DNA of 18,256 nt from positions 1-18,256 of the forward strand of contig CAXTKV010000102.1 of assembly GCA_964244895.1 (NCBI GenBank), given 5' to 3'. Shown here in pieces: positions 9,001-18,256 of this stretch. The position numbers were made by a program. The DNA is from an uncultured Deinococcales bacterium (GTDB lineage Bacteria > Deinococcota > Deinococci > Deinococcales > JAAFIG01). Numbering within the stretch: the first letter of the stretch is position 1; the number at the start of each line of letters is the position of its first letter.

Positions 9001-12000
9001 ATCGGCACGGAATTGGGGCTTTCGGATCTCGAGCTGCGCGAATTGCGTTGGGGCGCGTACCTGCACGACATCGGCAAGCTGGCGATTCCAGATGCGATCC
9101 TGTTCAAACCCGGCAAGCTCGATCCCGTAGAACGCAACGTCATCGAGACGCACGCGACCATCGGGCACCAACTCGCACTGAACCTGCCCTTCCTGCCGGA
9201 CGCCTCGCGCAGCGTGGTGCGCCACCACCACGAACGCTGGGACGGTCAAGGTTACCCCGACAGGCTTCGCGGCGAAACGATTCCATTGGCAGCCAGAATC
9301 TTCGCGGTCTGCGACGTGTTCGACGCGTTGATCAGCGAACGTCCCTACAAGAAAGCCATGTCTTTTACCGATGCGCTCGATGTCTTGCGAGAGGGCGTAT
9401 CGCGCGGCCAGTTCGATCCTCAAGTGATGACTGCCTTCGAGATCGTGGCCAGCCGCGAATGGGGTTTGCGACCGCCGGGTACGGCGCACAGACCCCAAGC
9501 TGTCCCGACCGATTGAGTCGTTTACAACGACATTCCGGCGATTGCGTTCCCGTCATGAATTCGTGACGCGATGTTCGGTACAACAGCGCGGTGAATGTCC
9601 GTTCCCCAATCTTAGAGCGCATCGTTACGGGCGCGTTGCTGACCGTGGCGGGCGGCGTCGGCCTGTGGGCGCTCAGGCCCGCACCCGCGCCCGTCGCGCC
9701 TCGCATTGAACAACCGCGCATCGTCGTGGCCATCAGCGGTCAGGTGGCGCACCCCGGCGTCTACGAGTTGCCGTTCGGATCGCGCGTGTTTGCGGCGATC
9801 AAGGCGGCGGGCGGTTTCAGCGATCGCGCCGACACCGACCTGGTTAACCCCGCCAAACACCTCGAGGACGGCGATCAGGTGCGCGTACTGTGAGGTATAA
9901 AACAAACGCAGAGTAGTTAAGATGTATATTCCAGTGAGTTTACAGTAAATCGCGTTTGCGTAAGTGGCGGATTCTCATCGCCGCGTCGCGGCCCATCTTA
10001 CTGCATCTTCGCTCCATTTTCACGCTTTTTCCAATCGTGGCTCATCAGCTCGCTGAGGCTCGAGGAGGAACCGTGGAAATGACTGTCTCATACCGTTTCG
10101 CGACTGGCGAACCTTTGCTAGAGATGCCCATCTCTGAGCTCAAACAGGTCAAGCTCGCGAATCTGAATCCCATGCGTCGCGCGTGGACGACTCGTTACCA
10201 GGGACACACGCCTGGATTTTTTTCTGCCGCTCCTCAGGTCAACTCGTTTACTACGAGAGTTATCTCGAGCGTCGAGTATTGCTTGTCGAGGACTACCAGA
10301 CAAGGGCGAACTGGGTGATCGACCAACCGTTCCGTCTGCACTTCGAGGGTGGCACCCACGTTCCCGATTTTCTGATGGTCACGGTCGATGGACCCAAAGT
10401 GATCGATGTCCGAAGCCGTGCCTATTTGAATACCACACGCTTCATGGCTGATCGAATCGCGATGGCGGAGGCGATGAACCGAATCGGTTGGTCGTACGAG
10501 GTGCGGTCCGAACCCGATCCTCAGATGTTCGCCAATTTGAATTGGCTGAGCGGTTTCCGGCGACGCCCTCCGGACGTTGAACTGTTCGCTCCTCGAGTGA
10601 TCGACTGCTTGTCGAGTGGTCCGTTGAGTTTCGCACAACTGTTCCATCGGCTCGGAAACGAACTCTTTTCGAAACCCGTCGTCTTTCACCTCCTTTGGCA
10701 CCGGATTCTCGAGGTCGACGTCTACGCACCACTGACAGGCGAAACCCGCGTTGACCTGAGCAAGGTGAAAAGAGTTGAAGCGTGATGTGGAAGATCCAAC
10801 TGAAGGTCGGTGCCCGGTTTTTTGCCGATGGTCGAAAGCACACCGTCACCGCCATCCGCGACGGTTTGCTCCAGACCCGCGACAATCAGGGTGCAATCAC
10901 GCTGATCAATGTCACCGATTTTTTGAGCTTCCCGGATTTCAGGTCGCTGGACAAGGACTCGCCGACGGCATCGTGGCCCTTCACGATGGTCAGTGACGAG
11001 GCGCTCAAAAAGGCTCGAATCCTCGAACGGCACCTTCGAGAAGTCATCACCGGTTCTCCGAGTCCTTACGGCGATCCAGAGCCACTCCCTCCGAAGGACG
11101 CGTACGATCCTCAAACGACGACACTCACTCTTCGCGTGTCGCTTAAAGCGGCTGAACTCGGGCAGAGCGACTCCGCCATCTGGAAGTACAAGCGCCAATA
11201 CGAATCGCACGGTGTAATGGGTCTCGTCGATCAGCGCGAGGTTCGGTACGTCAAGGCATTCGAGCGGATCGATCCACGGATCAAGGACGCCACTGCCAAG
11301 GTGCTCGAAACCGCGAAATCTGAGTCGAAATTGACGAAGTTGATCTTGCGCGAGCGCATCAAACGACAGCTCAGCAAAGATCACCAGGAGAAGATCAAAC
11401 TCCCATCAGTGGCAACACTGAATCGGTACATCGACGCGATCGGCACACCGCTCGGTGTGTTCCAAACCGCCCAGCGACGCAAGTCTGAGCGCAACCGTCC
11501 GGAGCGACCGTTTGGGCGCTTTGAGGCCGATTGGCCGGGCCAGATCGTCATATACGACTCGACGCAGTTGAACCTGTTTGGTCTCGACCCGATCACGCTG
11601 AAATGGGTTCAAATTCAGCTCACCATCGCCCAAGATCTTTACAGCCGCTCCATCGTGGCGTGGCGGTTCACGCCGACCGTACCGAGCGTGGATGCGGCAC
11701 TCCTGCTGTTCGATGTCCTCAGCCCGAAGCGCGCGAAGCGCTCTTGGCACGAGTCGACTCGAGGTTTCTATTTCGGCGTCCCGGACGAGGTCGTGCTGGC
11801 CCTTCCGGACGATGAAGAAAAAGAAACCAGCGAGGAGAAGACAACCGACGATACAGCGCGCATCCCGATGGTTCATCCGGAAACGGTGTTAATAGATCAC
11901 GGGCGCATCTTCGTTAGCGAGGCGTTCAGGCAGGCGTGTCTGCGGTTGGGGATCAGTCTCCAATATGCACGCCGCCGCGCCCCGACGGACAAAGCGATCA

Positions 12001-15000
12001 TCGAGACCACGTTCGACTTTGTCAAGGAACACTTCTGCGCGCGCCTGCCCGGTTTCACAGGGGCCAACATCGCGGCTCGAGGCGTCAACGTTGAGAACAG
12101 AGCCGTTTATTTCATCGATGAGATCGAGGAACTGTTCGCGGAGTGGGTGGCGACTGAGTGGCAACAACGTGTTCACGAGGGGTTGTTCCTGCCGGGATCG
12201 CCCAAGCTCGATCTCAGCCCGAACGATGTTTACCGCGAAGGAATCGCGCGCGCGGGGTTCGTATACGTCGTGCCGGATGCCACTTTGTACTACGAGTTGC
12301 TTCCGAGCGAGTGGCGTGTTGTGGGGGACAACGGGGTGTCGGTCAATGGACTGTTTTACGATCACGTGCGGTTGAACGACTACCGTGGTGTGCCTTCGGA
12401 GTACGGTGGAAAAAACTGCGGGAAATATCCGGTGAAATACGATCAGCGCAATCTCGGCGAGATCTTCTTCTTTGACTATCGCGCTACACCGCCTCAATGG
12501 ATCGCGTTGCGCTGGCGGGGAGCGCGGTCTCAACCCATGCCGTTCAACGATCACGCCTTGGCCTTCGCGAAAAACTTGTGCATTGAGCGCCAACTCGACC
12601 CTCGACAACCTGCCGTGCTCGAGGGAGCGCTTCGGTTCCTGTTGGATCGTTGGGATCAGCAGCAGTTTGGGACAGAGAAAGAGAGGAGAGCGATGGTCAA
12701 ACGCGCTGCGAATTTGGCCGCCAATCTTCGTGATCGAACCCGTATGTCAGCAGAACTCCTCCCTCCCGACGAGCCAATCAACTTGGGATTGATCGCTGGC
12801 GAGTTGAACCCTGAAGAAATCCTGGCGTACATAGAAGCCGCGCGAAGTCAGCCGATGGGGGATGAACATGCCAGCATGTTTGATTTCTGACGCTCAGGAT
12901 GACTCGTCCATCGAAGTCCTCAAGCTCGGAACCGCGCTCCCAGTGAAGCAAATCCACGACCGGAGAACGTGGGACGAACACGTGCGCTTCGAGATGATCG
13001 CGAAATCGCCCAGGGTGACCCTTGAGGAGTACAACGCCATGAGCGCACTGCAACAGCGTGAGTCCGATGCCCTGCGCCGACAGTACACAGGGAAACTCGC
13101 CCCCGTTTTCAGCGGTCGGTACAGTCGCGTGTACGACGAGATGTTTCGTATTGCGACCAGCAACATCGATCTCAGCAGTGGCGTTCGAATCGGAGCGGTT
13201 CTCACTGGTCCGCCAACGGTCGGGAAAACGACAACGATCGTTTGGTTTGGGCGTCGGTACGAGCGTCGCAGGCGCGCGATCCATCGTGCACAGTTCGGTA
13301 CGGACGAGTTTGTGCAGGGAGATCCGGAGTGGCTATTTACCCCGGTGATTTACGTTTCCCTCGATGGGACGCGAACCTTCAAAGCCCTGCTGCTAAACAT
13401 CGCCGCCTTCCTCAATATTCCGAAATACGACAAACTGGACGAACTCGGTTTGAAGTCGCAGATCGCCACGTACGCCAACAACTGCGGGGTCAGCCTGATC
13501 CTGATCGACGATATTCATTACCTCCGCACGCAGTTCGTCGGGGCGGAGCCATTAATCAACGACCTCAAGAAATGGATGGGCACGATACCCGCCACCTTCA
13601 TCTTTGCGGGTAACGATTGCGAGCAAATCGGATTCTTTCGCGAGTGGGCGAAAAGCAAGCCCAGTACGGCCTCGCAAACGAATCACCGGTTTGGAAAGAT
13701 CGAGTTACAGCCCTTTGCGATTGACCACTCCCAATCACGGGAACTCAACACGAAGGAACTCGGTGACGTCCTCCAAACGTACGATGACCTCTGCGTGCTG
13801 CTCAATCACCAGTCCGGCGATCTCGCCAAGCTGCTGATGTACATTATTGATCGCACGTCAGGCTACATGGGAGCCATCGTAACCTTGATCAAACACGGTG
13901 CAACTTTGGCGATCGCCAACCGAACAGAGCGATACTCGGAAGCGTTGCTCAATCAGATCTCGCTCGATAATGCTTCTGAGACGGCGCGACCGGACCGAAA
14001 AGCGGTGTCCGTCAACAAGACCAAGCAATCGAGGACTCCAAAGGATCGGAAGCGCAAAACGGCTCAAACCACTTCGCAGGATGGTGAGCCTCCTGCCCGC
14101 TGATTCCTCCTACCGCCTTCCCCTGCGGGTAATCGTGCCCGTTGGTGTGCCCTTGTCTGTCGTGCTCGAGCAAACGGCGGGCGCCTTGGAACTGAGCGTT
14201 TCCGAATTGTTGGGTTGGATCGGCGTCCCACGAATACCCGATCCACCGAGCAGAATTGACGACCCGCCGTGGCTCAATCCAGCTCAACTCGCCAGGTTGG
14301 CGCAGATCACGGGCGTTCCTGAAAAGAGCATCACGAACGCGAACCTCTCCTTTTTTGATGCTGCGCTCGCGTCATCCAAGCGGCAAAGGGCAACAGTTTC
14401 TGCATCCCGTCGAACGCACGCCGCCATCATCGGTGCGCTGCGGGTGAGACACTCGACGCGTCTTTGCCCTCGGTGCCTCGCCGAGGGGCGTCAGAAGAGG
14501 TTGGCGTGGCGAACGGGCTGGCTGTTCGCTTGCACTCGGCATCGGGTGCTTCTCGTTGCGACCTGCCCGCGCTGCGGCCTTCCTTTCGATGCTCATTGTC
14601 GTCAATCACGGGTTCCAGATCTCAGACGTTGCGACAACCACCCGGCCAAGGGGGAGAAGTGCGAACAACTCCTGTCTGATATTCCGACGGTCAACATTGA
14701 TGGTTTTCCCGAACTGATTCGATCGCAAGGACGTCTCGAGGCGGCGTTGACGGGACGAACGCTACGGTTTGTCGGTCAGCGCACCACACCGGTCGAGTAC
14801 CTCTACGGCCTTAAAGAACTGGTTGATGTTCTCGAGGCCGTTGCGGTCGTTGGTGAGCTCGGCGAGCTTCCGCCCGAGGTATTGAACCGTTTCGAGGCTC
14901 AGGTTCGCTCTCGCGCAGTCCAGTGGCAGCGACGCAACGAACACACGCCCGATGGCCTATCACCCGCGCCCTTTTCGAGTGAAAGCGACATCGAACTGCT

Positions 15001-18000: not shown

Positions 18001-18256
18001 CGGTTGATCCCGCAGAAGGCCATCGAGGCGCTCCGAGACAACGACACCGACGAAACAACAGCCACCCTGTTGGTCACGAGGGCTTTCGCGGCGCTTGGGA
18101 TGAAACTCAACGACAACGGGCAGAACGAGTACATGCTGTTTCACAGTCACCGCGAACTCCATGGCTTCGTTGCAGCGATCCGCGAGCATCGAAAAATACT
18201 GCTCAAAACCCGCACCGAAGCGGGCGGCGATAAAAAAGTGCAGCAGCAGAAGTTTC

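Follow-up and report, generated by a model that had tools for sequence, protein, structure and literature searches.

A Tn7-like transposon with TniQ and a Cas3-less type I-E Cascade carries a sequence signature of RNA-guided homing into comEA

The window analysed here is the whole 18,256-nucleotide contig CAXTKV010000102.1 (C102) of an uncultured Deinococcales bacterium (genome G000); positions given without a contig name refer to it, and the features described in it lie on the forward (+) strand. Window positions 9889-18256 hold one end of a Tn7-like element with tnsA, tnsB, tnsC, tniQ, cas genes and a CRISPR array. The genes form a single run in the order tnsA, tnsB, tnsC, a short tniQ, cas6e, a 4-repeat array, cas8e, cas11, cas7e and cas5e, the last located on contig C235 rather than C102. 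The end of C102 and the start of C235 share a 55-bp overlap, which agrees with the preliminary description of this DNA.

The element interrupts the host comEA gene. The 5′ half, with an SLBB domain (3.4e-14), occupies positions 9591-9888, and the HhH half continues at C225:178-779 (HHH_3, 5.9e-19); profile search with TIGR01259 gave 1.2e-13, under the whole-protein cut-off. Once one copy of the target-site duplication is removed, the two halves join in frame into 299 codons. The 5-bp duplication, CGTAC, is found at 9884-9888 and again at C225:173-177. The tnsA-proximal end of the transposon begins with TGT and spans 9889-9950 (the inner limit is approximate), with motifs in common with the far end at C225:1-172. 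The far end had previously been drawn to C225:175; its placement on C225, the duplication and the split of comEA all stand, while the limit moves to 172, since CGTAC starts at 173. A contig-overlap search revealed no overlap bridging C235 to C225, and the cargo between them is unassembled, so that joining the two ends depends on the split comEA, the duplication and the similarity of the ends.

The tnsA gene (10079-10785; NF033179 1.7e-37, 128.9 bits against a cut-off of 110) is frameshifted. In the assembled sequence the shift falls at a run of seven T residues (10217-10223) and places the first ~48 codons in a different frame from the rest; core alignment indicated that the TnsA core is retained in a 200-aa frame from 10183. 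The frame is unbroken in all four relatives compared. In the five CAST copies aligned, the TnsA motif is DVR or NVK, not DVK. The tnsB gene (10782-12890) codes for a 702-aa DDE transposase with weak Mu-transpos_C and rve matches, whose D259, D372 and E408 are invariant in six of six elements (this one and the five relatives described below). The AAA+ ATPase gene tnsC (12862-14103; AAA_22 5.6e-13) has Walker A and B motifs visible in translation. The tniQ product (14072-15232, start approximate; ~385 aa; PF06527 7.7e-13) is a zinc-finger core without a long C-terminal extension, and its Cys/His residues are again invariant (6/6). The tniQ frames of the six elements are 377-447 codons long, compared to 580-1100 in many Cas-less relatives. 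The element is identified as Tn7-like by its contiguous genes for a TnsB DDE transposase, a TnsC ATPase and TniQ, and by a pair of related ends with a 5-bp target duplication; its transposase belongs to the TnsA_like_Actin family. When genome contigs were scanned with the single TnsB protein, 40 candidates were obtained and none was confirmed; a TnsB alignment query returned 9 loci.

Directly 3′ of tniQ lies cas6e (15256-15840; PF08798 6.4e-26, TIGR01907 above cut-off). It is followed by the array (15887-16098), which consists of four 29-nt repeats and three 32-nt spacers with a 61-bp period, the final repeat being degenerate; the repeat forms a 7-bp stem with a 4-nt loop. No promoter-like site was found at 15700-16300. 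The cas8e gene (16210-17382; PF09481, Cse1, 3.1e-22) codes for 390 aa, ~120 aa below typical Cse1 size as judged by comparison of relatives' lengths, and the predicted structure of its product (pLDDT 94.2) has Thermus CasA as the top match (TM 0.74). Next come cas11 (Cse2; 17370-17816; PF09485 3.9e-5, at cut-off), cas7e (5′ part at 17806-18256, remainder at C235:1-720; PF09344 4.3e-31 and 2e-43) and cas5e (C235:722-1225; Cas5 2e-23, TIGR01868 4.5e-27). A tyrosine recombinase gene, far from tniQ, is located on C235 5.4 kb beyond cas5, and an 88% identical copy is present on C191. The tns and Cascade genes, as well as four repeats at 61 bp spacing between cas6e and cas8, are as reported in the preliminary description; the tnsA frameshift and the lack of Cas11 in four of the six elements are additions to it.

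The type I-E effector set is therefore complete in this copy (Cas6e, Cas8e, Cas11, Cas7e and Cas5e, together with a 29-nt repeat with a 7-bp stem). No cas3, cas1 or cas2 was detected in the assembled parts of the element. The sole cas1 and the sole above-cut-off cas3 of the genome lie together on C36, with a different repeat type. The element thus does not correspond to a canonical type I-E defence locus, in which Cas3 and Cas1/Cas2 are present.

The third and last spacer (16038-16069) matches comEA at 26 of 32 positions. The protospacer, at 9804-9835, lies in the comEA codon register and is preceded on its 5′ side by an AAG PAM (9801-9803); mismatches are at positions 6, 12, 15, 19, 20 and 24. 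The next-best match genome-wide is 24, and none of 20000 shuffled spacers equalled the comEA match in the 150-bp flank. The distance from the protospacer to the tnsA-proximal end is 53 bp. Spacers 1 and 2 have best matches of 22 and 24 of 32 in their own genome, both lacking an AAG PAM. Comparison of the array with plasmids gave eight weak matches (E 0.2-8), and a search of viral contigs with a Cas8 alignment produced 66 candidates, none of them confirmed.

The same module with the same gene order was identified in five of 18 family genomes (G001, G002, G012, G014 and G017). Together with the G000 copy, the last spacer matches the element's own flank in five of six cases, each at a different conserved locus: comEA (26/32), rtcB (29/32), an NFACT gene (24/32), comM (20/27) and tRNA-Glu (26/32). 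Distances to the element end are 53, 53, 51, 53 and 52 bp, respectively. A spread of 46-61 bp had been given earlier; it narrows to 51-53 bp when duplications or end motifs are used to define the ends. The PAM is AAG in four elements and AAA in one. Per 20000 shuffled spacers, the observed score was reached 0, 0, 1, 1 and 0 times in the same order, the tRNA-Glu value (G002) not being an independent test because that site was located by searching with the spacer itself. Of the 30 mismatches in the five targets, 26 occur at every third position of the spacer, a period that coincides with codon wobble in all four protein-coding targets. Seed position 3 is mismatched in both G001 and G002.

Target duplications are CGTAC in G000, CCTGA in G014 and AAAAA in G017, with a 4-bp ATGT in G002, i.e. 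5 bp in three of the six elements and 4 bp in one. The G017 element is inserted in comM; at two of the five sites (comEA and comM) the insertion splits a gene. The G001 end was placed by a motif in common with G017, without a duplication, and the far end was not found for G001. One relative without a flank match had been mentioned earlier. In the present set the one that has no neighbouring match is G002; its last spacer does match tRNA-Glu on a different contig from the tns genes, 52 bp from an element end, a link that assumes C11 and C12 to be neighbours, with ~97 kb of cargo. G012, whose proximal flank and end are unassembled, was excluded from the five-site count. In relatives, its spacers 4 and 6 match the opening part of a conserved gene in antisense (19-23 of 32), and this likely target carries AGC, AGT or AGG instead of AAG in five relatives. 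In one branch the ends begin with TA instead of TGT. Cas11 is absent from four of the six elements (not found in four of the five relatives) and is fused to Cas8 in G014. The PAM-to-end distance is 80 bp for the element with a 27-nt spacer, compared to 83-85 bp for the four with 32-nt spacers, as if the insertion distance were counted from the guide's far end, judging by this one case.

The six elements form one group in the TnsB (quick tree, 20 rows, support 100), TniQ (FastTree, 25 rows, support 99) and Cas8 (FastTree, 60 rows, support 100) trees, and the same two subgroups recur within it; all three were built by fast methods with midpoint roots. These groupings suggest that Cas and Tns proteins were inherited together. 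The closest TnsB relatives (~37-42% identical) belong to Cas-less Tn7-like elements of the TnsA_like_Actin family from Deinococcota, Chloroflexota and Actinomycetota. None of 22 such loci tested matched the cas genes described here, and these elements mostly have long or paired TniQ/TnsD, unlike the short TniQ here. An SSB-like protein, formerly tied to the element, was rejected as a CAST-specific subunit because its gene is present in 17 of 121 order genomes, in either orientation, and at least four times shares its contig with other TniQ genes.

We conclude that, very probably, this Tn7-like transposon uses a co-opted type I-E Cascade without Cas3 to select its targets and is guided to its homing sites by RNA. 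The sequence itself shows which genes are present, both ends, the duplication and, in five elements, how spacer match, PAM and distance to the end go together. The homing signature proposed earlier is supported by these five independent insertions at five loci, and in sequence terms it is that of I-F3 CASTs, carried by a type I-E Cascade. By analogy with type I-E and I-F3 biology, Cas6e would cleave the transcribed array at the hairpins of its repeats, and Cascade with the last spacer would bind next to the AA(G/A) PAM and open an R-loop. At the PAM-distal end, TnsC would be recruited by the short TniQ, and TnsB, with or without TnsA, would insert the element with its tnsA end toward the PAM, the 5-bp duplication beginning ~48 bp beyond the protospacer. 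Since Cas3 is absent, a self-targeting guide would leave the host uncut. Homing sites may have been switched between lineages through change of the last spacer. Because tnsA is frameshifted, normal excision may have been lost in this copy.

A last spacer matching the flank at five loci, with an AA(G/A) PAM and at 51-53 bp, is predicted neither by a passenger CRISPR nor by a protein-guided selector. Homing by protein, through TniQ acting by itself or together with a TnsF-like partner, with Cascade as cargo and the spacer acquired later, e.g. for silencing a neighbouring gene, would fit the use of comM as a TnsF target by Tn6022 (PMC10293859, as far as the accessible text goes) and the tyrosine recombinase gene on C235. 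We nevertheless regard it as quite improbable: each of five loci has a last spacer of its own, matching at 51-53 bp, TniQ is short, the recombinase lies well past cas5 and has a copy on C191, and silencing an already split gene has no explanatory value. Alternatively, a Tn7-like element whose insertion does not depend on Cascade might have picked up a Cas3-less I-E module that serves competition between mobile elements or transcriptional silencing. Such a module may exist in G215, where an ICE- or plasmid-like region holds a run of type I-E genes in this same order that lacks Cas3, codes for short forms of Cas8 and Cas5 and has no tns match inside the 20 kb fetched; as a candidate sister of the present Cascade this run was not retained, the Cas8 tree failing to resolve it. 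We give this explanation very little credence, since it predicts neither the fixed protospacer-end distance and orientation in five elements nor the matching TnsB, TniQ and Cas8 groupings. An assembly or binning artefact uniting unrelated pieces is scarcely credible, even for a genome in 328 contigs with the element spread over at least three, given that tns genes, array, cas8, cas11, protospacer and end are all on one contig, the gene order recurs in five relatives and the comEA halves join in frame.

RNA-guided homing by the element would add type I-E to the Cascades steered via TniQ by Tn7-like elements. As type I-E is the best-understood Cascade, TniQ docking and R-loop holding without Cas11 become directly testable, with natural variants among the relatives (Cas11 separate, fused or absent; a 27-nt guide). 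It would also provide a compact, AAG-PAM programmable integrase on the best-studied Cascade, which may serve as a tool. If comEA and comM are targeted by RNA, this would resemble the way in which AbaR-type islands reach comM under protein guidance and would suggest repeated selection for shutting off DNA uptake.

In the literature searched, as far as its accessible text goes, no TniQ-bearing I-E CAST was found, and such a system is absent from the accessible part of the 2025 classification, as had been stated before. A 2024 review counts I-E among Tn7-captured CRISPR subtypes, and novelty is therefore likely, not proven. On balance, we favour an undescribed and independent event in which a Tn7-like transposon with TniQ captured a type I-E Cascade and was retargeted by RNA to at least five conserved loci, destroying two competence genes. 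One branch would work with a minimal, Cas11-free Cascade and has TA ends, and the insertion distance may depend on the length of the guide.

Among known systems, judged by the accessible parts of the sources, I-F3 CASTs (Tn6677, Tn6900 type) share TnsABC with one short TniQ and a Cascade without Cas3 and Cas1/2. They also share a homing spacer at the array end with an atypical repeat, a spacing of ~48 bp, and unpaired positions that coincide with codon wobble (10.1101/2020.07.02.184150). In contrast to I-F3, the present element has type I-E subunits, a 29-nt repeat and an AAG-type PAM, tniQ-cas immediately after tnsC, the array between cas6 and cas8, and a TnsA_like_Actin-family transposase; it splits comEA and comM, where I-F3 spares the target gene. 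The telomeric I-E5 of Streptomyces likewise ties a type I-E Cascade lacking Cas1/2 to TnsB and TnsC, but is described in the accessible text as a TnsBC element without TniQ and with intact Cas3, one-ended at telomeres and with no protospacer beside the end (10.1101/2024.11.13.623437). The present element has TnsA, TniQ, a duplication flanking its two ends and an adjacent protospacer but no Cas3, and is not I-E5, which is defined by the lack of TniQ, active Cas3 and one telomeric end. Tn7-like I-C and IV-A CASTs are metagenomic and Cas3-less too, with the I-C TniQ adjoining TnsABC, but are reported as non-I-E and array-less, and a further I-E Cascade covered in the same source is tied to the Rpn nuclease, not to Tn7 genes (10.1101/2021.08.16.456562, from the part accessible). 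Finally, Tn6022/AbaR and Tsy elements insert in comM, as does the G017 element; in the accessible text they use the protein selector TnsF (PMC10293859), whereas here a spacer matches the site.

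The assembly of G000, the genome under study, comprises 328 contigs, of which the window (C102) is one. From window position 9889, tnsA, tnsB, tnsC, tniQ, cas6e, a CRISPR array, cas8e, cas11 and the start of cas7e follow one another; the end of cas7e and then cas5e lie on C235, which shares a 55-bp overlap with the window end. The array consists of four 29-nt repeats, the final one degenerate, separated by three 32-nt spacers. As proposed in the preliminary description, spacer 3 matches comEA (window 9804-9835, 26/32, preceded by AAG), the runner-up site genome-wide scoring 24. 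The SLBB half of comEA ends at 9888 and the HhH half picks up on C225 beyond a related end. The latter was correctly placed on that contig, but it extends over positions 1-172 rather than 1-175. CGTAC is present at both element ends and the joined comEA halves form 299 codons in frame, which bears out the proposed split with a 5-bp duplication.

The tnsA gene is present as described, but a frameshift had been overlooked: its opening ~48 codons are out of frame with the remainder, the shift falling at a run of seven Ts (10217-10223). The frame is unbroken in all four relatives tested. A 200-aa product from 10183 is recorded under three sources, possibly all from the same reads, and the frameshift may be a mutation, slippage or a sequencing error. 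An orphan end closely resembling that on C225 was found at G000:C24:18312, with ~1.5 kb of lower G+C beyond; its flank did not match any of the three element spacers. Elsewhere in the window, a GAF/HD-domain gene (7672-9516) lies upstream of comEA, and a family of short intergenic palindromic repeats occurs at 90-141, 990-1045, 2917-2958 and 5470-5522, its core motif being found 1201 times in the genome.

The last spacer of each element was compared with the 150 bp outside the element end, with 20000 shuffled spacers as control. In G000 (comEA, 26/32, PAM AAG, 53 bp to the end) and G014 (3′ end of rtcB, 29/32, AAA, 53 bp) no shuffle was as good; one was in G001 (3′ end of an NFACT gene, 24/32, AAG, 51 bp to an end set by motif) and one in G017 (comM, 20/27, AAG, 53 bp). 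None was as good in G002 (tRNA-Glu, 26/32, AAG, 52 bp), a figure to be read with the fact that this site was located by means of its spacer. Contig links in G000, G002, G014 and G017 were inferred. Earlier spacers had no match with an AAG/AAA-type PAM beside the element ends. G012 was omitted because its proximal flank is unassembled; its spacers 4 and 6 (G012:C513:8471-8614) resemble each other and run antisense to the beginning of a single conserved gene that has no Pfam match, and this pair is perhaps a renewed homing spacer.

Mismatches fell on every-third positions in 26 of 30 cases, a register shared by codon wobble in all four coding targets. Third-position changes are not all silent, since in G001 a Trp codon of the host corresponds to a stop codon in the homing spacer. 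In G001 the insertion lies within the final NFACT codons (C404:14063), the NFACT frame continuing for a few codons inside the element end. The PAM-to-end distance was 80 bp for the 27-nt guide of G017 versus 83-85 bp for 32-nt guides; this single case fits a distance measured from the distal end of the guide.

Far ends were also found in G014 (duplication CCTGA) and G017 (AAAAA, the remaining comM half being on C54). In G002, at C12:104510-104602, the far end is followed by ATGT (4 bp) and then by 85 bp that duplicate the tRNA-side end with 96% identity, a pattern suggestive of recurrent insertion at a single site; the sequence behind tRNA-Glu differs in four other genomes of the genus. Ends start with TGT in G000 and G014 and with TA(T/G)(A/G)GAAAA in G001, G002 and G017; in G012, C571 holds an end-like match to the latter type.

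Cas8 and TnsB searches of 19 family genomes including G000 revealed the same module in 5 of the 18 others (G001, G002, G012, G014 and G017). Database records holding these genes are titled Deinococcales MAGs. Among 364 genomes of the phylum, the Cas8 profile scored six at E<1e-160, the very genomes that built it, no other genome doing better than 4.5e-34. With the same profile, 17 representatives among 1.84 billion scored E<1e-30, known from the Cas8 match alone.

In TnsB, TniQ and Cas8 trees (fast methods, midpoint-rooted) all six elements cluster together and divide into G000 plus G014 on one side and the other four on the other. None of 22 loci of the nearest TnsB relatives tested matched these cas genes; TniQ/TnsD of these relatives is mostly long or paired. 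Cas11 is a separate gene in G000 and a Cas8 fusion in G014, and a three-sequence profile did not find it in the remaining four, in which cas8 adjoins cas7 directly and Cas7 has 404-407 aa. Cas8 is ~390 aa long versus ~500-540 in most distant matches, its modelled fold resembling Thermus CasA (TM 0.74); Cas5 has 144-171 aa versus a 230-position model. In another genome, a Cas3-less type I-E run (G215:C8:58700-63970; L109:8700-13970) comprises an array, cas6, a 388-aa cas8, cas7, a 173-aa cas5 and a second array, and lies among genes for SSB, an ArdC-like protein and a helicase; nothing within 20 kb matched tns. It shares the gene order of the element's Cascade and is possibly of its source type.

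The SSB-like protein encoded on C235 (L001:2881-3477, minus strand) has a double OB fold as in Thermus/Deinococcus SSB (Z 11.4, rmsd 3.3, 152 aligned); a host double-OB ssb gene lies at window 3764-4639, minus strand. The SSB-like gene occurs in 17 of 121 genomes of the order, frequently near TniQ genes, and as tandem pairs in G001 and G002. That it helps pick mobile targets is speculation, because it also lies near other TniQ genes. Two tyrosine recombinase genes, 88% identical (L001:6636-7430 and G000:C191:9141-9857), lie at ends of contigs that also hold the SSB-like gene; this repeat may explain the cargo assembly gap. Probable cargo in relatives encodes conflict-system domains: EAD1-trypsin, GAP1 and double-GTPase in G017 (L046:3836-8245), a PLD-SNF2 helicase in G014 (L013:10719-13424) and a STAND-like NTPase in G012 (L012:1227-5525).

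The anatomy of the element, its ends, duplications, PAM, spacing and orientation were seen in the sequence. By analogy with type I-E and I-F3 systems, Cas6e would process the array transcript, Cas8e would read the PAM, TniQ would sit at the PAM-distal end, TnsC would load and TnsB would integrate the element. Cas1 and cas3 of the host were found elsewhere in the genome in all five hosts tested. In G000 they accompany a separate array whose 37-nt repeat, ending in GAAAC, is unlike that of the element and which we take to be type I-C.

In the accessible part of the 2025 classification, Tn7 CASTs (CRISPR-associated Tn7-like transposons) are classed as I-F, I-B, I-D, I-C and IV-A, and I-E4 is a nuclease variant; as the preliminary description held, it lists no TniQ-bearing I-E CAST, only I-E5, TniQ-less with Cas3 (PMC12669027). 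From the portions available, the published I-E CAST is not Tn7-like and lacks an adjacent protospacer (10.1101/2024.11.13.623437), and I-E is reported only beside Rpn (10.1101/2021.08.16.456562); 'I-E' is absent from the available main text and three supplements of PMC10293859, as is an I-E Tn7 system from that of PMC10910872. Against novelty, a passage of PMC11656645, citing three papers, names I-E as one of the subtypes that Tn7-like transposons have captured. According to an excerpt of PMC8464060, I-E CASTs miss transposition proteins, and therefore both sources probably mean the TniQ-less type. A literature search by title and start of abstract, with subscription papers, patents and bioRxiv supplements outside its scope, returned no TniQ-bearing I-E CAST. 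This type is likely to be undescribed so far.

At the sequence level the element is consistent with a Tn7-like CAST in every test, save for an intact tnsA in the G000 copy, and its RNA-guided homing is very probable. The element in G000 is neither an I-E5 nor a canonical I-E system; it probably works like an I-F3 CAST.
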